Positions 4,566-59,022 of a stretch of DNA of 64,000 nt are shown here, in pieces. The stretch's first letter is position 1, and each line of letters opens with the position of its first letter. The DNA lies in contig JBAZUH010000001.1 of assembly GCA_041661545.1 (NCBI GenBank), forward strand, positions 275,877-339,876, read 5' to 3'. The notes beneath the pieces were generated by a model. The model had not been told where the DNA came from and did not search any database. It worked only from the letters and a program-made list of their open reading frames with translations. Source of the stretch: Candidatus Staskawiczbacteria bacterium (GTDB lineage Bacteria > Patescibacteriota > Minisyncoccia > Minisyncoccales > Staskawiczbacteraceae). Both the position numbers and the translations under genes were made by a program.

Positions 4566-4637
4566 TGGGCGCGGAAGGAATCGGACCTTCGACCTCTGTC
4601 TTATCAGGACAGCGTTCTACCACTGAACTACGCGCCC
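4566..4637 (-). tRNA. tRNA-Ile (anticodon GAU)
   Basis: The reverse complement folds as a cloverleaf: GGGCGCG/TA/GTTC-AGTGGTA-GAAC/G/CTGTC-CTGATAA-GACAG/AGGTC/GAAGG-TCCGATT-CCTTC/CGCGCCC/A. No encoded CCA. The T-loop reads TCCGATT (C at position 55). Confidence 0.9.
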
Positions 4638-4685: not shown

Positions 4686-5095
4686 ATAAAAAAAGAGGGC
4701 TACACGAGTGTGTAGCCATGGCGAACGGGTTTAGGTGATGAGGAAGAGGTCTGAAAGACGGTAAGTGGATTGTAAATGATCTAAAAGATCCGGACGGCAG
4801 CAGGCAGAGCAGGGCGCGCTGAACAAATTTACGCGGTGAGTCCAGCGAACCCTTGGCGCTCAAGCCTGCCACCGTCCATTGGGAATAGTCAAAGCCATAT
4901 ACGGAGGACGATCCCCCCAGACAAGCCCCCGAGAGCCATTGACTTTTCCGAAATCGTTCAGGTCGGATGACGAATTATGAACAAAGCATACAGCCCTGAC
5001 AGAGGCGAAGCACCACCGAACGCAGTGCCACTTGTGCTCATATCTCGCTAACCGGCCTGAAAACTATTTACTATTCAAATAAACAATTTTCAGAA
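4686..5095 (-). ncRNA. rnpB: ~400-nt GC-rich structured RNA; best guess RNase P RNA (identity uncertain)
   Basis: About 50% GC in an AT-rich context. It contains a 13-bp helix (GACGGUGGCAGGC/GCCUGCUGCCGUC) enclosing nested helices, and UUCG-type hairpins. It ends in the intrinsic terminator GGCUACAC-ACUC-GUGUAGCC plus a U-run. Loose resemblance to RNase P: GAGCACAAGUGG...UAGAUCAUUUACAAUCCACUUAC with AAGUGG/CCACUU (P4-like) pairing, and AGGCUUGAGCG. Other conserved RNase P blocks were not recognised. Confidence 0.45.
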
Positions 5096-6584: not shown

Positions 6585-6884
6585 TTAAAGCACGGCTTTA
6601 ACTTTTATATACCCATCTTTTTTATCTGGAAAACCTGCCATCAACCTGTCTACTGTTCCCGCATTTCTTGGCAAAACCTCATCTGTCCTGGTCGCATTTA
6701 AATTTGCTATTCCATTATTCCGTGGAATATTGGAATAGTTAGCTTTGGGTTTTGGGGCGGATTTTAATAAATCAAAATAATCTAAAATTTCTGACAGGTC
6801 TTTCTGCATTTTTTCTGTTTCCTGTTCTGTTAATTCTAACCTAGCTAATTTAGCAATTTTTTCTACCTCTTTTTTAGATATCAT
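6585..6884 (-). CDS. gatC: Asp/Glu-tRNA amidotransferase subunit C
   Basis: MISKKEVEKIAKLARLELTEQE...ILDYFDLL pattern, 99 aa, upstream of gatA. Confidence 0.9.
   Translation of the reverse strand: MISKKEVEKIAKLARLELTEQETEKMQKDLSEILDYFDLLKSAPKPKANYSNIPRNNGIANLNATRTDEVLPRNAGTVDRLMAGFPDKKDGYIKVKAVL
6707..6742. repeat. family-2 palindromic element copy inside gatC coding sequence
   Basis: CTATTCCATTATTCCGTGGAATATTGGAATAGTTAG differs at 2 positions from the intergenic 39-mers at 10450 and 10789. It is read in frame as NYSNIPRNNGI. Confidence 0.8.
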
Positions 6885-6995: not shown

Positions 6996-7286
6996 ATGAA
7001 AGCATCTTTGTTAAAATTATTCCGCGCGCTACTCCAAGCGCTGCATGGTTTCTTTTGTGGACATACTTTTGCAATATCTTCAAATACATGCAACACTTGT
7101 GGCGTAGAATTATGCGGAAAAAGGCTCATTGAAGGTTTCTCTTTCGCCTGTAATTTACCAAAGGGCCATAAAGGGCAATGCGAAAATACTTTTGGGCAAG
7201 ATGCAATTTCAAGCTATCTCAGGGTTAATGGCGGAGGCCCTAAAATCAACGACAGTCGCGTCACCCATGAAACCACAAACTCATAG
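6996..7286 (+). CDS. small Cys/His-rich protein A (zinc-ribbon-like), GC-rich islet
   Basis: The ORF is open from 6966 (TTG), with the first ATG at 6996. Motif: CGHTFAISSNTCNTCGVELCGKRLIEGFSFACNLPKGHKGQCEN. The start codon is uncertain. Confidence 0.5.
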   Translation: MKASLLKLFRALLQALHGFFCGHTFAISSNTCNTCGVELCGKRLIEGFSFACNLPKGHKGQCENTFGQDAISSYLRVNGGGPKINDSRVTHETTNS

Positions 7287-7497
7287 ACACGCGCGACTTG
7301 GAAATCTTGCACATTGTGAAAGCTGTGGCGCTCCAATGTGCCTATCCCAACATCCATATCTGCTAGTGTGCTGCACGCGAGTAAGAGGACACTCAGGACA
7401 GTGCAACAACCCAAACTTTCTCAGCTTCACGAGCTGGGATCGACCAAGCGAGCAACACCCGAACCTCCCCACGCGTCTTGAACATCCAGCCTTTTAA
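7267..7497 (+). CDS. small Cys/His-rich protein B, paralog of protein A
   Basis: Motif HCESCGAPMCLSQHPYLLVCCTRVRGHSGQCNN repeats the C-x2-C-G-x3-C...C-x5-G-H-x-G-Q-C-x-N pattern of protein A, but in the +1 frame. The ATG at 7267 overlaps the end of A. The ORF is open from 7129. Confidence 0.5.
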   Translation: MKPQTHRHARLGNLAHCESCGAPMCLSQHPYLLVCCTRVRGHSGQCNNPNFLSFTSWDRPSEQHPNLPTRLEHPAF

Positions 7498-7586
7498 CTG
7501 ATTATTCTTGATTGTTTACCGCGCATGCATCGAATTTCTATTGGAAAACGATGCTTTTTTTATACTACAATACTCTTGATATAGCC

Positions 7587-10449: not shown

Positions 10450-10488
10450 CGCCTATTCCGTTATTCCGCGGAATATTGGAATAGTTAG
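10450..10488. repeat. family-2 palindromic 39-mer
   Basis: CGCCTATTCCGTTATTCCGCGGAATATTGGAATAGTTAG, identical to the copy at 10789. Its core ATTCCGCGGAAT is a perfect palindrome flanked by CTATTCC/GGAATAG. Confidence 0.9.
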
Positions 10489-10757
10489 ATTAGTGTTTTT
10501 AAAAATTTCAAAACTGCTACGCCCTTACTTGTTATTTTGTGATGGACAATCAACCCTTCGGATCTTTTTATAACAAAACCTGCTATTGCCATTTTCTTTA
10601 TGTGATCAGATGCTGTTCTAAAATTTATATTTAAAATTTTAGATATATCTACCAGCGACATTTCGGGATTTTTACTTAATAATTCCAAAATTTCAATCCG
10701 CCTGTGATTAGCAAACCCTTTTACAATTCTTTCTACTTGATAATAACTTTTACTCAT
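10485..10757 (-). CDS. ArsR-family winged-helix transcriptional regulator
   Basis: HRRIEILELLSKNPEMSLVDISKILNINFRTASDHIKKM helix-turn-helix pattern, 90 aa. Confidence 0.7.
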   Translation of the reverse strand: MSKSYYQVERIVKGFANHRRIEILELLSKNPEMSLVDISKILNINFRTASDHIKKMAIAGFVIKRSEGLIVHHKITSKGVAVLKFLKTLI

Positions 10758-10788: not shown

Positions 10789-10827
10789 GCCTATTCCGTT
10801 ATTCCGCGGAATATTGGAATAGTTAGG
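10789..10827. repeat. family-2 palindromic 39-mer (possible operator upstream of the ArsR-like gene)
   Basis: Exact 39-nt repeat of 10450..10488, located about 30 nt upstream of the regulator's start codon. Confidence 0.9.
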
Positions 10828-10839
10828 TTGCTGGATAAG

Positions 10840-12014: not shown

Positions 12015-12043
12015 TTGACAATACTTATTTAATATGCTATGAT
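12015..12043 (+). promoter_or_regulatory. strong sigma70-type promoter with extended -10
   Basis: TTGACA (12015-12020), 17-nt spacer, TATGAT (12038-12043) preceded by TGc. Confidence 0.6.
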
Positions 12044-12114
12044 TAATGTATAGCGTTAATCACGCTTTTAGCACCCCCGCCGTGAGGACTCACGGCACAA
12101 CCCCAACCACCACC

Positions 12115-12300
12115 ATGAAACTGTTTATTGCCTTCCAGACATCCGCACTTCTTTGTGCGGTCAGCTCAGCCGTTCTTCTCTCCGGCTACATCCCCGATAC
12201 CACCAACAGCTTCAGGCTGTTTTACGGGATCTTAGCGGGATTTTTTGCCCTTAAGATGGAGGGCCACGCGATCGCGGAAAAAATCATCCACAAGTTGTAG
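12115..12300 (+). CDS. putative 61-aa hydrophobic peptide (alternatively part of a non-coding structured RNA)
   Basis: ATG at 12115 gives MKLFIAFQTSALLCAVSSAVLLSGYIPDTTNSFRLFYGILAGFFALKMEGH.... No RBS (C-rich leader). The region is packed with perfect hairpins, so coding status is uncertain. Confidence 0.35.
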   Translation: MKLFIAFQTSALLCAVSSAVLLSGYIPDTTNSFRLFYGILAGFFALKMEGHAIAEKIIHKL

Positions 12301-12367
12301 CACCCCGTGCTACAACCTATGCCCTGCTCTCGCAACTTCGGTTGCGATTGCGGGGCTCTTTTTTTAT
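12293..12367 (+). terminator. double-hairpin intrinsic terminator
   Basis: GTTGTAGCAC-CCC-GTGCTACAAC, then GCCC..TCGCAAC-TTCG-GTTGCGA..GGGC, followed by a T-run. Confidence 0.75.
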
Positions 12368-12382
12368 TTCAAAATTCTGATT

Positions 12383-12982: not shown

Positions 12983-13058
12983 AAGCGAGGCAATGAGATT
13001 TTTCGAAGCTTGTTGTGCGAAGCGAATAAGTGCGAAGAAAAATCTTGTTGCCGAGCGA
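12983..13058. repeat. family-1 palindromic element
   Basis: AAGCGAGGCAATGAGATTTTTCGAAGC...GCGAAGAAAAATCTTGTTGCCGAGCGA. Near-identical to the copy at 23106. Fills the holB-frr spacer. Confidence 0.9.
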
Positions 13059-13819: not shown

Positions 13820-13832
13820 ACTTAAGGTCTTT

Positions 13833-13987
13833 AGCGAGGCAATGAATTCGTAGCGAACCCTGCAGGCAATTTTGCAAGGTTCCGCGAAGCGGAAAAATTG
13901 CCGAAGCCTGAGTGAGTTGCGCGCTGGCGCAATGAACGCTAGCGAAGAATCATTGCCGAGCGAAAAATTTATTGCCGAGCGAAAAAA
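13833..13987. repeat. family-1 composite or nested palindromic element
   Basis: AGCGAGGCAATGAATTCG...GGCAATTTTGC..GCGGAAAAATTGCC...GAATCATTGCCGAGCGAAAAATTTATTGCCGAGCGAAAAAA. Fills the mreB2-holB spacer. Confidence 0.85.
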
Positions 13988-20192: not shown

Positions 20193-20210
20193 AATTTTAT
20201 TGCCGAACGA

Positions 20211-23105: not shown

Positions 23106-23181
23106 AAGTGAGGCAATAAGATTTTTCGAAGCTTGTTGTGCGAAGCGAATAAGTGCGTAGAAAAATTTTATTGCCGAACGA
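23106..23181. repeat. family-1 palindromic element
   Basis: AAGTGAGGCAATAAGATTTTTCGAAGCTTGTTGTGCGAAGCGAATAAGTGCGTAGAAAAATTTTATTGCCGAACGA. Near-identical to the 12983 copy. Lies between rpmJ and rpsM. Confidence 0.9.
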
Positions 23182-30336: not shown

Positions 30337-30471
30337 AGTGAGGCAAAAGTAATTTTAATAAGCGAGACAATAAACTTTTTGTAGTTTCTGGTCCACTTGC
30401 CCGAAGAGGCAAAGGGGGCTACCAGCTACGGAAAAAAGTTTATTGTCGAGCGAAAAAATTTATTACCAAGC
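30337..30471. repeat. family-1 nested palindromic element
   Basis: AGTGAGGCAAAAGTAATTTTAATAAGCGAGACAATAAACTTTTTGTAG...CTACGGAAAAAAGTTTATTGTCGAGCGAAAAAATTTATTACCAAGC. Fills the rplO-secY spacer. Confidence 0.85.
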
Positions 30472-41908: not shown

Positions 41909-42109
41909 ATGGCGGAAGAAAAAGTAACTGTTAAAATTAGACGAAGGAACAGAATCGCCGGAATTTCTGTTGCCAACGACATGATTAAATCCGGGTGGAC
42001 AGTTTCAGGGTTCGAACTTGTCGTTCCTCAAGGAACCAACATATACTTTGAACGGGAAATTCCCGACCCCCCAACAAGCTTCCCAGACTGCAATCAGAGG
42101 GGCCGGTAG
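41909..42109 (+). CDS. islet ORF3, small DUF4177-like module protein
   Basis: ...MIKSGWTVSGFELVVPQGTNIYFEREIPDPPTSFP. Module shared with ORF4 and ORF5. ACACCCACAAA lies 31 nt upstream. Confidence 0.55.
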   Translation: MAEEKVTVKIRRRNRIAGISVANDMIKSGWTVSGFELVVPQGTNIYFEREIPDPPTSFPDCNQRGR

Positions 42110-42147
42110 TATAATTACCAAACCAACGATCTGAAAGGAATACGGAA

Positions 42148-42360
42148 ATGAAATACGATCCAATATTGCTTAGCAGCGATGATATGAATAGATTCAGAAC
42201 AGATCTAATAAATATGGGAGAGGAAGGTTATCACACGATAGGCTTCCACGCAATCTCTAACTCTAGCGGAGTCACGTTGTATGCCCTAATGGAAAAGGAA
42301 CTTCCCAGCGACCCTCCTAACAACCTTCCCAAGCCACACCCCGAAGAACCCGTGGTATAA
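42148..42360 (+). CDS. islet ORF4, small DUF4177-like module protein
   Basis: Preceded by GAAAGGAATACGGAAATG. ...INMGEEGYHTIGFHAISNSSGVTLYALMEKELPSDPPNNLP. Confidence 0.55.
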   Translation: MKYDPILLSSDDMNRFRTDLINMGEEGYHTIGFHAISNSSGVTLYALMEKELPSDPPNNLPKPHPEEPVV

Positions 42361-42403
42361 CAATTAACTACTAATCCAGTAGAAAGCCGAAAGGAACACG
42401 AAA

Positions 42404-42868
42404 ATGAAAAAGTGGGAATATACAATTTTCTTTTTCCCTAAAGAAAAGATAGAATCAATACAAGGCCTCAGCAAATTTGGAAAAGAAGGCTGGCGAGTGA
42501 TACACGTAAGTGAAAACATGTTCGCCGCTTTACTCGAGCGGGAAATTCCCGAAACGGAAGAACCCGCGCCAAAAGCTCGCAAGAAGCTAACCGAACTTCC
42601 TGCCGAACAACTAGCGCCGGCGCCAGATTCTCCGGGCCAATGCAAATTGAATATGGATGAACAACCCCATCTAGATTGGTCCGCATCCAAACCAGCGCCG
42701 GCCGAATCAGTCGGCTTAGACGTCGCTGGCCACGACGAACATGGTTGCACATACGGACCAGTGGCCAAAACCACACCGCAAGCGCCGGCTTCTCCGGATA
42801 AAACCGGCGCGTATCCAGCATTTCCAAGCTGGGAAGAAGACGACGACAATCTTCGAGAAAATCAGTGA
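42404..42868 (+). CDS. islet ORF5, DUF4177-like N-terminal module plus long disordered Pro/Ala/acidic tail
   Basis: Preceded by GAAAGGAACACGAAAATG. MKKWEYTIFFFPKEKIESIQGLSKFGKEGWRVIHVSENMFAALLEREIPETEEP. The tail contains KPAPAESVGLDV, as in ORF2. Confidence 0.6.
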   Translation: MKKWEYTIFFFPKEKIESIQGLSKFGKEGWRVIHVSENMFAALLEREIPETEEPAPKARKKLTELPAEQLAPAPDSPGQCKLNMDEQPHLDWSASKPAPAESVGLDVAGHDEHGCTYGPVAKTTPQAPASPDKTGAYPAFPSWEEDDDNLRENQ

Positions 42869-49716: not shown

Positions 49717-49839
49717 AAGCGAGGGAATAAATTTAAAGCGAGCCAAATAAATTTTTAGAGGAGGGGCAATCGCCTTCAGGACATTCCCCCGACGAGCAAA
49801 AATTTGATTTGGCGAGCGGATAAATTTATTTCTCGAGCG
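49717..49839. repeat. family-1 nested palindromic element
   Basis: AAGCGAGGGAATAAATTTAAAGCGAGCCAAATAAATTTTT...AAAAATTTGATTTGGCGAGCGGATAAATTTATTTCTCGAGCG. The right arm supplies the last codons and stop of the 49826..50689 gene. Confidence 0.85.
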
Positions 49840-55896: not shown

Positions 55897-56041
55897 AAGC
55901 GAGGCAACAAACTTGTAACGAGGCAGTTAATTTTCAGCGTATTTCAGGACACGAAGTGCCTGACGAAGCCATTTAGACGCGAAGCGTATCAATGGCGGTA
56001 GCAGAAAATTGACTGCCAAGAGAAAAAAACTATTGCTGAGC
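55897..56041. repeat. family-1 nested palindromic element
   Basis: AAGCGAGGCAACAAACTTGTAACGAGGCAGTTAATTTTCAGCG...GCAGAAAATTGACTGCCAAGAGAAAAAAACTATTGCTGAGC. Confidence 0.8.
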
Positions 56042-56044
56042 TTC

Positions 56045-57466
56045 TTAATTAACTACCTCTATAATTCCCGTAATCATTCCCATTTGGCAACTAAACCTAT
56101 TCTTACCAACTTTTTCTGGCGTAAATTCTTTAATTGAAACTTGACCAGGAATTAAATCAATAGATCCTGAAAATAAACCAGCAGAAATAATTGAACCATT
56201 ACAGCCCCCTGCTGTTTTATCTGCAGTTATTTCCCATCTAACAGGAACGCCCACTTTTACCTTAAAATAATTTGGCACATCTTTACCTCCATAAGCCACC
56301 ATTTTTATAACTTGTTTACCATCAACTATTGGAGGCAAATCTTTTTGATCAACAACTTGTGCTGGGGGGTTAATGTCAATTCCAGTAAAACCTAAAACAT
56401 TAGTTTGGTTTGAAATATTATACAAAGCAAAAAATAAAACTAAAAAACCTGCAACTTTTGAAAATTTTTCTGCTAAATTAGGTTTTGCTAAAAATTTGAC
56501 ACTAGACAAACCAATAAACAACAAAGCTGGTGCAGTGCCCAAAGCAAAAGCCCCCATCATAAGTGCCCCACTAAATGCATTTCCCGAAATTAATGCTAAA
56601 CTTTGAGCGGTAATTGTAAAACCACAAGGCAAGAAAAAAGTTAACCCTCCCATAATAAACGGCATATATTTGCCTTTAAAATTATTTTCGTTGGCAATAT
56701 ATCTGGTTGCTGATTTTGGAAGACCCAAAGGGTACCCCATTTGAAATTTTCTAAAAACTCGCGCTCCCAGCATTTGAAATCCCAAAACAATCATTAAAAT
56801 AGAAACTGCAATAATTAAGAAAGCCGTAAACTGAATAGATATTTGAAGTCTGCTTCCTATTAAACCTAATATTCCTCCCAAAATGGCATACGTTATAATT
56901 CTTCCCGCATTAAACATTAAATGCGGTTGAAATTTTTTAAAAATACTTGCATTTTCTGCATAAAGGCTATTCCATTGTTTTGACATTGATAAGACAATGC
57001 CCCCAACAAGCGCAGCACAAGAAGATATACCAGCTAAAAAACCAAATCCTAAAAATGCAATCAAAGAAGAAGCAGAACTTAAGCTTAAAAAATCGGCTAT
57101 GCCAACTTTTTGTAAAATTAAAAAAGCAATAATTATAAAAATTGCTATATTAAAAGCCACTAATGTTGGGCTAGTGCCCTTAACGTTGCTGTTTGTTTTC
57201 GTATTGGCTAATTCCTGCCTACCGGCAGGCAGGCGTGCGGAATTAGCCGGTAAGGTCACATCTGAAAATGTGTAATTTTCTTCTTTAAACAATTTGTTTA
57301 ATCTTTCCGGGCTAGGTCTATTATTTTCATACTGCACAAAAACCTCTCCTTTTGATGTAGAAGCATCAACAGATTTTACTTCGGGCAAATCTAAAAGCTT
57401 TTTCTCAATCAAAATTTCACACGAAGCGCAATGCATTCCTTTAACTTTATATATATGCTCATTCAT
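56045..57466 (-). CDS. HMA domain - polytopic permease - C-terminal cupredoxin-like domain fusion protein
   Basis: N-terminal GMHCASCEILIE, about 6 TM helices (TauE/CcdA-like appearance), and a C-terminal ~100-aa beta domain ending ...FSCQMGMITGIIEVV. Confidence 0.7.
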   Translation of the reverse strand: MNEHIYKVKGMHCASCEILIEKKLLDLPEVKSVDASTSKGEVFVQYENNRPSPERLNKLFKEENYTFSDVTLPANSARLPAGRQELANTKTNSNVKGTSPTLVAFNIAIFIIIAFLILQKVGIADFLSLSSASSLIAFLGFGFLAGISSCAALVGGIVLSMSKQWNSLYAENASIFKKFQPHLMFNAGRIITYAILGGILGLIGSRLQISIQFTAFLIIAVSILMIVLGFQMLGARVFRKFQMGYPLGLPKSATRYIANENNFKGKYMPFIMGGLTFFLPCGFTITAQSLALISGNAFSGALMMGAFALGTAPALLFIGLSSVKFLAKPNLAEKFSKVAGFLVLFFALYNISNQTNVLGFTGIDINPPAQVVDQKDLPPIVDGKQVIKMVAYGGKDVPNYFKVKVGVPVRWEITADKTAGGCNGSIISAGLFSGSIDLIPGQVSIKEFTPEKVGKNRFSCQMGMITGIIEVVN

Positions 57467-57475
57467 AAAAAATAT

Positions 57476-57558
57476 AAGCGAGCCAATAAATTTTTTCGAG
57501 GCGAATGGGCACCGTCCGCAGACGGGTTGAGACGAGAAAAAATTTGATTGGCAAGCGA
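57476..57558. repeat. family-1 palindromic element
   Basis: AAGCGAGCCAATAAATTTTTTCGAGGCG...GACGAGAAAAAATTTGATTGGCAAGCGA. Lies between csoR and the HMA-permease gene. Confidence 0.85.
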
Positions 57559-57921: not shown

Positions 57922-59022
57922 CTACTTGATAATACCCCCGCCTAAAACTTGGCTACCCTTGTAAAATACTGCGGATTGGCCTTGTGCCAAGGCTTTGCCT
58001 AATTTTTTAAAAACTAATTTTCCATCCTTATACAGAATGGCTTTTTGTAAAGGGGCTCTATATCTAGTTCTAACATCCATTAATACCGGAAAAATCTCCG
58101 GTTTATTTATCCAACTAATATTTATTATTTTAGCTTCTTTTACAGCCAAATCTTTCTCTGTGCCCACATATATAATATTTTTCTTTATATCTTTTTTAAC
58201 AACAAAATACGGCCCGTGCCCATTTTTTATATCTAATCCATGTCTTTGCCCAATTGTATAATAATAGACACCGTCATGCTTCCCTATTTTTTTACCATCA
58301 ATAGAAATTATTTCTCCTATTTTTGGTTTTATATACATTTTTAAGAAATTTTTCATATCAAACTGCCCAACAAAGCAAACGCCTTGACTATCTTTTTTTT
58401 CAGCATTTTCTAATTTAAATTTTTTAGCTAATTTTCTAACTTCTGGTTTTTCTAAATTACCTACTGGAAATAAAATTTTATTAAGTTGCTTTTGTTTTAA
58501 TGTATATAAAAAATATGTTTGATCTTTATTAGCATCAACCGCTTTTAACAAGCGAGGCAATGAACTTTTTCGAGAAGAGGGTGCCCCGTAGAGAGGCTCT
58601 CCTCGCAGAAAAAGTTTATTGCCGAGCGAAGTTTGCGCATAATGACCAGTTGCAACAAAATCAAAACCTTGTTTCATTGCTTTATCAAAAAAATAACCAA
58701 ATTTAATAATTTTATTACACATTACATCGGGGTTTGGAGTAATCCCCTTTTTATAAGAATCAATCATATACTTACCAACTTCTGTTTCATATTCTTTAGA
58801 AAAATCCCAAGTTAAAAAGGGAATTCCTAGCTTAGCGCAAGCTCTCATGGCATCTTGTCTATCTGCTTTCCAAATACATTCTTTTTCCAGAATTTCTGGA
58901 GACCATTGACGCATATAAATTCCAACTACATTAAAACCAGCTTTTTTTAACAAAGCTGCTGAAACGCTAGAATCTACTCCGCCAGACATAGCACATGCAA
59001 CTCTAACCATAATATTTTTCAA
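57922..59022 (-). CDS. mnmA: tRNA 2-thiouridine(34) synthase MnmA, carrying an in-frame repeat insertion
   Basis: CAMSGGVDSSV PP-loop, ATGHYAQ, NKDQTYFLY. The segment SLGNKLFLRGEPLYGAPSSRKSSLPRL is encoded by a family-1 element. Confidence 0.9.
   Translation of the reverse strand: MKNIMVRVACAMSGGVDSSVSAALLKKAGFNVVGIYMRQWSPEILEKECIWKADRQDAMRACAKLGIPFLTWDFSKEYETEVGKYMIDSYKKGITPNPDVMCNKIIKFGYFFDKAMKQGFDFVATGHYAQTSLGNKLFLRGEPLYGAPSSRKSSLPRLLKAVDANKDQTYFLYTLKQKQLNKILFPVGNLEKPEVRKLAKKFKLENAEKKDSQGVCFVGQFDMKNFLKMYIKPKIGEIISIDGKKIGKHDGVYYYTIGQRHGLDIKNGHGPYFVVKKDIKKNIIYVGTEKDLAVKEAKIINISWINKPEIFPVLMDVRTRYRAPLQKAILYKDGKLVFKKLGKALAQGQSAVFYKGSQVLGGGIIK
58550..58630. repeat. family-1 palindromic element inserted in frame in mnmA
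   Basis: AAGCGAGGCAATGAACTTTTTCGAGAAGAGGGTGCCCCGTAGAGAGGCTCTCCTCGCAGAAAAAGTTTATTGCCGAGCGAA. 81 nt, 27 codons, no stop in the mnmA frame. Confidence 0.85.

Follow-up and report, generated by a model that had tools for sequence, protein, structure and literature searches.

What is a long hairpin-forming palindrome doing inside a housekeeping gene, in frame and without a stop codon, and how did it come to be there? The question is raised by a stretch of 64,000 nucleotides from Candidatus Staskawiczbacteria bacterium (GenBank assembly GCA_041661545.1, contig JBAZUH010000001.1, positions 275,877 to 339,876 of the forward strand; hereafter the window), in which mnmA, the gene for tRNA 2-thiouridine(34) synthase, carries an 81-nt element with inverted ends. 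An initial annotation, made from the letters of the window, had described the segment as a complete member of a dispersed palindromic family (family 1) and had likened it to the Rickettsia palindromic elements (RPEs). [quoted passage not shown] We give this explanation, taken as a whole, a probability of about 0.7. The host gene, the element and its parts are located as follows, in coordinates of the window.

57922-59022, minus strand: mnmA, encoding tRNA 2-thiouridine(34) synthase, a 366-residue open reading frame assigned by its PP-loop, its DxxC and C motifs and NCBIfam models
58550-58630, minus strand: the family-1 hairpin element with core type A, recognised by GC content, folding, arm match and translation
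58608-58630, minus strand: 5' arm in mRNA sense (TTCGCTCGGCAATAAACTTTTTC), encoding SLGNKLF
58572-58607, minus strand: core module A, about 36 nt, GC-rich and hairpin-forming by itself
58550-58571, minus strand: 3' arm in mRNA sense (GAAAAAGTTCATTGCCTCGCTT), encoding KSSLPR(L)

On the plus strand, 58550-58630 reads AAGCGAGGCAATGAACTTTTTCGAG...CGCAGAAAAAGTTTATTGCCGAGCGAA; the mRNA strand begins and ends with the two arms just listed. Twenty-seven codons, specifying SLGNKLFLRGEPLYGAPSSRKSSLPRL, run through the segment in frame and with no stop. Because this peptide maps to 58549-58629 on the minus strand, the coordinates first reported for it were one base out of codon register, although they are valid as the ends of the element. 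With that adjustment, the claim of a complete, in-frame, stop-free element in mnmA is borne out by the arms, the fold, the translation and the protein family model NF001138 (see below). The element has a GC content of 0.46-0.50, as against 0.20-0.30 in its flanks. Its sense-strand RNA folds with a predicted energy of -39.6 kcal/mol (z-score -5.3, none of 200 shuffled sequences being as stable), its DNA with -23.7 kcal/mol (z-score -5.15), and the stem of about 30 bp is predicted to be very stable in the mRNA. No Rfam family matched around the element, at gathering thresholds or at E values up to 10, and a scan for terminators and promoters found nothing at it; the flanks lack a run of T and copies of the family lie inside operons, so the element does not resemble an intrinsic terminator. 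An intein or intron was considered and rejected, the segment being too short, without a matching family and always in frame. An assembly artefact was likewise rejected, as the identical protein is present in three sources (NCBI, JGI and Logan) and related alleles carrying the element occur in many independent assemblies.

The gene that hosts the element looks functional. Its open reading frame matches the NCBIfam equivalog model for MnmA (NF001138) with an E value of 5.8e-124 and 413.5 bits against a cut-off of 284, and TIGR00420 over its full length with 388 bits against a cut-off of 237; the true start is probably the ATG at MVRV.... The SGGVDS PP-loop is retained, as are DVMC, the DxxC motif (in PDVMCNK), and the second catalytic cysteine (GVCFVG, in QGVCFVG), which together make up the DxxC plus C catalytic motif as defined previously (PMC8053098). 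At the window locus the genes stand in the order iscS-iscU-mnmA-csoR, and the order iscS-iscU-mnmA is conserved. Between the window gene (the query) and its counterpart at the related locus L199, third codon positions are 59.6% identical as against 79.8% for the whole gene outside the element, and the far greater divergence of third positions (0.60 versus 0.80) points to purifying selection on mnmA. The element itself is identical at 79 of 81 nt in the same pair and thus appears to be younger, or more constrained, than the gene around it. An AlphaFold2 model built on 59 orthologs reaches a mean predicted local distance difference test (pLDDT) score of 90.8 and a predicted template modelling (pTM) score of 0.89, and Foldseek aligns it with a TM score of 0.88 to 2hma, 2det and 2deu (MnmA of Streptococcus pneumoniae and Escherichia coli), with the three-domain MnmA fold. 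On this well-predicted fold the insert, at about residues 130-157, is modelled as a short helix followed by coil, with means of 74 and 60 over blocks of 10 residues between flanks of at least 95; it is, in the model, a low-confidence loop at the predicted tip of a surface beta-hairpin. The initial annotation had offered either tolerance of such a loop or loss of function, and the motifs, the equivalog score, the selection and the two structural analyses together make tolerance the better reading.

Evidence on the history of the element comes from the same site in related genomes. In a survey of the representatives of the 77 closest Staskawiczbacteria MnmA clusters (64-100% identity), four states were found.

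30 of 77 clusters: one or more family elements, with different cores and nested copies
6 of 77 clusters: a short one-arm (half-element) remnant
28 of 77 clusters: an ancestral-type short turn, for example QIKNGK
13 of 77 clusters: other inserts, for example of the REIRNPKSEIRN types

The closest orthologs without the element, P0004 (GHYAQIKNGKLL), P0005 (GHYAQTKNGKLM) and P0012 (GHYAQVKGGRLL), share 86-88% amino acid identity with the query over 322 shared columns and have the short turn at the site, so that the 27 residues are absent from them. Where orthologs do have a homologous segment, it is itself a palindromic member of the family. At the DNA level an empty allele reads CAA ATA AAA AAT GGT AAA TTA TTA AAA GC and a filled one CAA AC[T TCG CTC GGC ... 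CCT CGC TT]G TTA AAA GC, with the element in brackets, which is a net gain of 66 nt or 22 residues. Every sequenced filled allele has the outer junctions CA(A/G)A(C/T)T followed by TCGCTC on the left and CCTCGCTT followed by (A/G)TT(A/G)AA on the right; the TCGCT direct repeat seen at both ends belongs to the element, since it is invariant in all copies. The right junctions nonetheless vary at the protein level, with ...LPR-LLK in some alleles and ...LPRSVK-LLK in others, and differ between clades. Different cores occupy the same site: the query and P0002 have core A, and P0003, L047 and L067 have core B. The peptides differ with the core type, down to their reading frames (SLGNKLF versus RSAINFF). 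In L199, L200, L047 and L067 a complete newer copy sits within leftover arms of an older one, and the remnants include a left arm only in P0033 (TSLGNKLF) and, in P0024, QIKN followed by a right arm only (KSSLPS). Where the length of a copy is not divisible by three, as in those of 94 nt, adjoining remnants keep it in frame.

A phylogeny of these proteins was built by bootstrapped neighbour joining on the 322 columns outside the insert, with 200 replicates. Bootstrap support is 100% for a clade that unites the query, P0002-5, P0009 and P0012, and within it P0002, P0003, P0004 and P0005, two of them filled and two empty, group together at 93%. Filled P0010 and empty P0020 likewise pair as sisters, with 93.5% support. 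Not one of the 200 replicates makes the filled alleles monophyletic, and in none are the query and P0002 sisters, even though their elements are almost identical. Between the query and L199, the codons adjoining the element show as much divergence as the remainder of mnmA, with no transferred tract to be seen, and the xKNGK-type turn of the empty alleles is also present in distant Parcubacteria.

The loop into which the element is set appears to be permissive. The initial annotation had put the interval from GHYA to NKDQTYF at 35 residues here, compared with about 19 in the enzymes of E. coli and B. subtilis. The figure of 35 stands, and so does the comparison, with about 19-20 residues between GHYA and KDQTYF in the MnmA of Bacillus subtilis and S. 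pneumoniae; the uninterrupted alleles of the lineage itself are, however, shorter still (GHYA-QIKNGKLLKAVDT-NKDQ), and the net gain is 22 residues rather than 27. Among 88 MnmA genes from the collected loci, most have a GHY..KDQxYF interval of 24 or 28 residues; a metagenome scan with MnmA, whose hits were mostly distant homologs (40-50% identity) with about eight close ones, served to show these standard lengths. The insert does not align to this interval and hence is not a normal MnmA insertion of unrelated bacteria. Several lineages resembling the Candidate Phyla Radiation (CPR) have longer intervals, often encoded by strongly hairpin-forming DNA of unrelated sequence (z-scores down to -8.4). 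The variation in interval length across the 88 genes argues that the beta-hairpin tip tolerates changes of length.

Inserts of other kinds were also noted, at this position and elsewhere in MnmA. P0009 carries a different insert at the site (REIRNSKFEIRN...), and unrelated inserts, among them those of the REIRNPKSEIRN and GRTQIENPVWSNFYDRRNL types, lie at the same MnmA position in L118 and L119 (3391-3543), L137 (3364-3489), P0040, P0059, P0065 and P0068; the three examined as DNA (L118, L119 and L137) are all strongly hairpin-forming, with z-scores of -6.6 to -8.4. The MnmA of L047 (3354-4532) has in addition a short GC-rich insert in its N-terminal region (…QAGLARGRSTAEGFDAVG…) that is absent from the window protein.

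Beyond mnmA, the element belongs to a family whose members are about 70-100 nt long and consist of a conserved pair of arms, each of about 22 nt and in inverted orientation (TTCGCTCGGCAAYAAAYTTTTT ... AAAAARTTYATTGCCTCGCTT in mRNA sense), around one of several interchangeable GC-rich cores. The arm motif GGCAAYRANNTTTTTC has 17 matches in the window where 6.4 are expected, a number reached by none of 100 shuffled sequences, and the family has at least nine members there, at a density of about one copy per 7-8 kb; that the element is part of a dispersed family, as originally proposed, is therefore upheld by both the copies and the motif excess. The other copies in the window are these.

12983-13058, minus strand: copy exactly filling the spacer from the stop codon of a holB-like gene to the ATG of frr
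13832-13982, minus strand: composite or nested copy with two left arms and extra core material
23106-23181, minus strand: intergenic copy directly upstream of rpsM in a ribosomal protein operon
30360-30453, minus strand: intergenic copy of 94 nt with core type B, in the rplO-secY spacer
49736-49819, minus strand: intergenic copy of the CAAAT-arm subtype
55897-56023, minus strand: degenerate or composite copy downstream of an HMA/DsbD-like gene
57476-57558, minus strand: intergenic copy between the csoR-like and HMA/DsbD-like genes, about 1 kb from the mnmA copy
20200-20210 and 49717-49727: solo arms

The spacers orthologous to 57476-57558 are empty in L198 and L201. In spacers between csoR and the HMA gene that lack the family (L198, 11985-12009; L203, about 1444-1470), we noted a small AT-rich hairpin, which reads AAATTGC-TAAA-GCAATTT in L203, at the place occupied in the window by a complete family element.

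A pattern scan of species-representative genomes gave 117 loci, and 58 complete copies of the family were examined. Complete two-armed elements among these loci are confined to metagenome-assembled genomes of Staskawiczbacteria and a few bins labelled Patescibacteria or 'Saccharibacteria'; matches in other phyla are single arms at chance level, and viral contigs yielded 17 single-arm matches, attributable to chance, and no complete element. Core A recurs in intergenic copies of other genomes (L016, L035, L037, L088 and L091), the L035 copy differing from the mnmA element at only 3 of 80 positions. Of the 58 copies, 47 have G-C as their outermost arm pair, 5 have C-G, 3 have A-T and another 3 a broken or wobble pair; compensatory changes preserve the stem. 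The strand opposite to the mRNA folds the more stably in 53 of the 58 (mean -37.1 versus -32.6 kcal/mol on the mRNA strand). On the AAGCGAG strand, GCGAAGC or CGAAG loops are present in many cores (for example, in the window, 12983-13058 and 55897-56023; elsewhere, L073 and L089). The GCGAAGC motif forms very stable DNA mini-hairpins.

Copies are placed in a regular way. Fifty-two of the 58 are intergenic, and the typical one begins just past the stop codon of a gene and ends 5-20 nt before the next ATG, ribosomal protein operons included. The remaining six are intragenic, and all lie at the one mnmA site (the window, L047, L067, L121, L199 and L200). With respect to transcription, TTCGCTCGGCAA...TTGCCTCGCTT is the mRNA strand of all six intragenic copies and of 24 of the 25 that lie between tandem genes. 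At L076, two copies change orientation along with two convergent operons, and this one informative locus suggests that the orientation rule follows transcription rather than replication. In the sense orientation an average of 1.97 of the three frames are open, compared with 0.97 in antisense. A protein search with an 80-residue concatenation of three open frames gave no candidates, and the same search also failed to recover the query's own database protein.

Taken together, these comparisons lead us to prefer a hot spot at which elements were gained or refreshed more than once to one insertion that was inherited, because filled alleles are scattered among empty ones in the tree, cores differ, copies are nested and, between the query and L199, the element has diverged less than its gene. 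A copy would have entered the mnmA DNA that encodes the tip of the surface beta-hairpin, between the GHYA and KDQTYF motifs, and would have been tolerated there through a combination of about two open frames in three in the sense orientation, preservation of the frame and a permissive loop. We infer that the insert is translated, as expected from the fact that every insert is in frame and stop-free across many lineages and lengths; the ribosome would read through it to give an MnmA with a loop 22 residues longer and an enzyme that still functions. Different lineages would have gained family members at the site independently of one another, or had their copies refreshed, with newer copies landing within older ones and resident copies perhaps attracting further ones. 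Old copies and long loops may then be trimmed by internal deletion, leaving half-element remnants close to the original loop length. Mobilisation would occur in trans, by a putative hairpin-recognising enzyme for which, by analogy of architecture, the nearest precedent is a REP/RAYT-like or IS200/IS605-like single-strand mechanism.

Several observations sit awkwardly with this explanation and have to be set against it. A stretch of 14 nt in the empty allele (TAAAAAATGGTAAA) is missing from the filled one, so that the event was not a simple insertion, and the clean 81-nt insertion implied by the initial annotation has to be given up. No variable target-site duplication is visible at the copies, whose flanks are merely AT-rich. 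Filled alleles agree in orientation, in right-arm reading frame and very nearly in their outer junctions, which would also fit a single origin. None of the 58 copies lies in a loop of another protein; since a permissive loop alone would predict such copies, some targeting mechanism is needed. A scan for the HUH...Y..NP motif of RAYT and IS200-like enzymes in the window and in the open reading frames of the collected loci found no match, the scan being crude and covering a small part of each genome. Finally, near-identical cores across species whose synonymous sites are saturated could indicate a host function rather than recent mobility. We tentatively entertain the idea, possible but still doubtful in our judgement, that the MnmA beta-hairpin tip is a true targeted integration site at which loop codons have been replaced in repeated, independent events within a candidate order of CPR bacteria. 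The empty allele's ...AAATAAAAAATGG..., which is similar to the A-rich stop/ATG junctions beside intergenic copies and is not retained in filled alleles, may be the feature recognised; alternatively, that feature may be a resident older copy of the family.

How, then, do other explanations fare? The one with most to recommend it holds that a single ancient insertion in the ancestor of the Staskawiczbacteria was inherited vertically, with gene conversion and nesting producing the variety of cores and replacement by recombination producing the empty alleles. It keeps some credit because the filled alleles share orientation, right-arm frame and near-identical outermost junctions, and it gains from the presence of an element or remnant in 36 of the 77 clade members; the newer copies nested within older arms (L199, L200, L047 and L067) would fit it as well. 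We nevertheless regard it as unlikely. The empty alleles have the same xKNGK-type turn as distant Parcubacteria, and deletion cannot regenerate such an allele, because its 14 nt are absent from filled ones. Filled and empty alleles group as sisters with a bootstrap value of 93%, no replicate (0 of 200) makes the filled alleles of the clade designated A monophyletic, right junctions differ between clades, and replacement by recombination finds no transferred tract to support it, divergence between the query and L199 being as great beside the element as elsewhere in mnmA. Less probable again, in our estimation, is that the host has co-opted the element and selection maintains it, either as an mRNA hairpin acting, as intercistronic copies may also do, in stability, processing or translational pausing or as a protein loop binding tRNA or a partner. 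Such a role would account for an element that differs at two positions in 81 while third positions of its gene are 59.6% identical, for near-identical cores across species, for stem pairs kept by compensatory changes, for the many copies that end 5-20 nt before the next ATG, and for the strict orientation (24 of 25 and 6 of 6) that tracks operon direction in L076. Yet 28 of 77 close orthologs do without any insert and six keep one arm only. A role for the protein loop is unlikely given that the peptides of different core types are wholly different, even in reading frame, and the insert is modelled with low confidence; a role for the RNA is hard to square with an mRNA strand that is on average the less stable of the two, with the lack of an Rfam match and with an mnmA copy that is not terminator-like.

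Two further explanations can be largely set aside. An insertion within the catalytic domain, in a small reduced genome, might be supposed to have inactivated mnmA and left a decaying pseudogene. This possibility, raised in the initial annotation, is already disfavoured and we consider it very improbable: the open reading frame is full length with all its catalytic motifs and scores 413 bits against the cut-off of 284, purifying selection outside the insert is strong and iscS-iscU-mnmA order is conserved, the fold is confidently predicted, and the same arrangement, always in frame, persists in dozens of species. It is just as hard to credit that the hairpin is removed from the transcript in the manner of an intron or an rRNA intervening sequence, leaving a mature protein without the insert. 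The stem, which spans about 30 bp and is very stable in the mRNA, would suit such a process, and rRNA genes of CPR bacteria are known for intervening sequences. However, we know of no bacterial mechanism for joining the parts of an mRNA again once a hairpin is cut from it, exact excision would not recreate the ancestral loop, and no intron family was detected. Moreover, inserts stay in frame and free of stops across lineages and lengths, including the 94-nt copies offset by remnants, a pattern expected only if the insert is translated.

Among known systems, RPEs are the obvious comparison: about half of their copies, from three families, lie in many unrelated genes (Ogata et al. 2000, as summarised in PMC10969869). 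Like them, the present family consists of short, selfish-looking, non-coding palindromic repeats that form a stable hairpin in a small reduced genome, with an in-frame copy in a conserved housekeeping gene, placed where the fold can accommodate it, that apparently adds a translated peptide. The RPE-like behaviour proposed in the initial annotation holds to that extent, but not as a general invasion of genes, for this family hits one site in one gene (6 of 58) and is otherwise intercistronic (52 of 58 copies being intergenic). It also differs in length (about 70-100 versus about 100-150 nt), in host phylum, in its modular cores and in its strict orientation to transcription, the two being compared here by description only.

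In architecture the family appears closest to REPINs (PMC3116915, PMC3337134), with which it shares two inverted conserved sequences of about 20-25 nt, a variable spacer, a long hairpin, tens of copies per genome that are almost all extragenic, long-term persistence and conservation in a lineage and stems tolerating G-T mismatches. REP super-families are defined by GTAG and CGTC end tags (PMC3733652); the arms of this family lack either tag and end instead in TTCGCTCGG and CCTCGCTT (TTCGCTC, CTCGCTT), and the crude motif scan of the window and collected loci found no gene for a REP-associated tyrosine transposase (RAYT). MITEs offer another parallel, bacterial examples of which copies lie in frame within genes (ERIC, BOX, Nezha and the like) having been reviewed (PMC10969869). 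The resemblance lies in small size, a non-autonomous nature, terminal inverted repeats, the lack of coding capacity of their own and occasional in-frame fusion to an open reading frame; the differences are that the present family shows no variable target-site duplication, that 14 nt of its empty site are missing from the filled one, and that no autonomous insertion sequence with matching ends was seen in genome fragments of 8 kb. As far as we are aware, REPs and REPINs have not been described as having a single orientation to transcription or as recurrently occupying a coding site. The GC-rich palindromic clusters of the yeast var1 type insert in frame in mitochondrial genes of a very AT-rich genome, are polymorphic between strains and are translated in a tolerant region. 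They thus share with the present elements the character of GC-rich hairpins in an AT-rich genome, and differ in being organellar and of unrelated sequence. Our full-text literature searches found no report of translated palindromic elements of this kind in CPR bacteria or Patescibacteria. In-frame insertion of palindromic repeats is known; what sets this case apart is the CPR host, the single, recurrently occupied coding site and the transcription-oriented intercistronic family.

The window also contains repeats and islands of other kinds. A GC-rich palindrome of a different family (GGCTAATTCC...GGAATTAGCC) lies at 57200-57250, in frame within the HMA/DsbD-like open reading frame at 56045-57466 on the minus strand; relative to the L198 ortholog it amounts to a 13-residue linker insertion (LPANSARLPAGRQ), and it is within 1.5 kb of the mnmA element. 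Another palindromic repeat, CTATTCCGTTATTCCGCGGAATATTGGAATAG, has three apparently intergenic copies at 6707-6753, 10453-10499 and 10791-10837. Two GC-rich islands, at 4689-5073 and 12036-12369 (at least 50% GC in 60-nt windows, where the window as a whole has 34%), contain many predicted stems, and the first adjoins a tRNA at 4566-4637. Neither matched an Rfam family even at permissive thresholds, and they could be undescribed structured RNAs or foreign DNA. By the same measure, further long GC-rich stretches occur at 16-1166, 7203-7509 and 41955-42866.

Palindromic repeats that are apparently translated within essential genes have otherwise been documented mainly in Rickettsia, and the family described here provides a second system. 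CPR bacteria have very small genomes, and their proteins often have unexplained lineage-specific insertions, some of which can now be tied to a DNA-level repeat family. Such inserts also come with a warning, in that they alter the length of marker proteins and may be mistaken for assembly errors or functional loops. An attractive aspect of the mnmA site is that the same codon-level position is empty, filled with varied cores, nested or reduced to a remnant in closely related species, which amounts to a natural replicated experiment and allows one to follow mobile hairpin DNA as it enters a coding sequence, persists there and is lost again. Should the beta-hairpin tip prove to be a targeted site, it would represent a landing pad within a coding sequence for non-autonomous mobile DNA, possibly served by a hairpin-recognising enzyme that has yet to be described.

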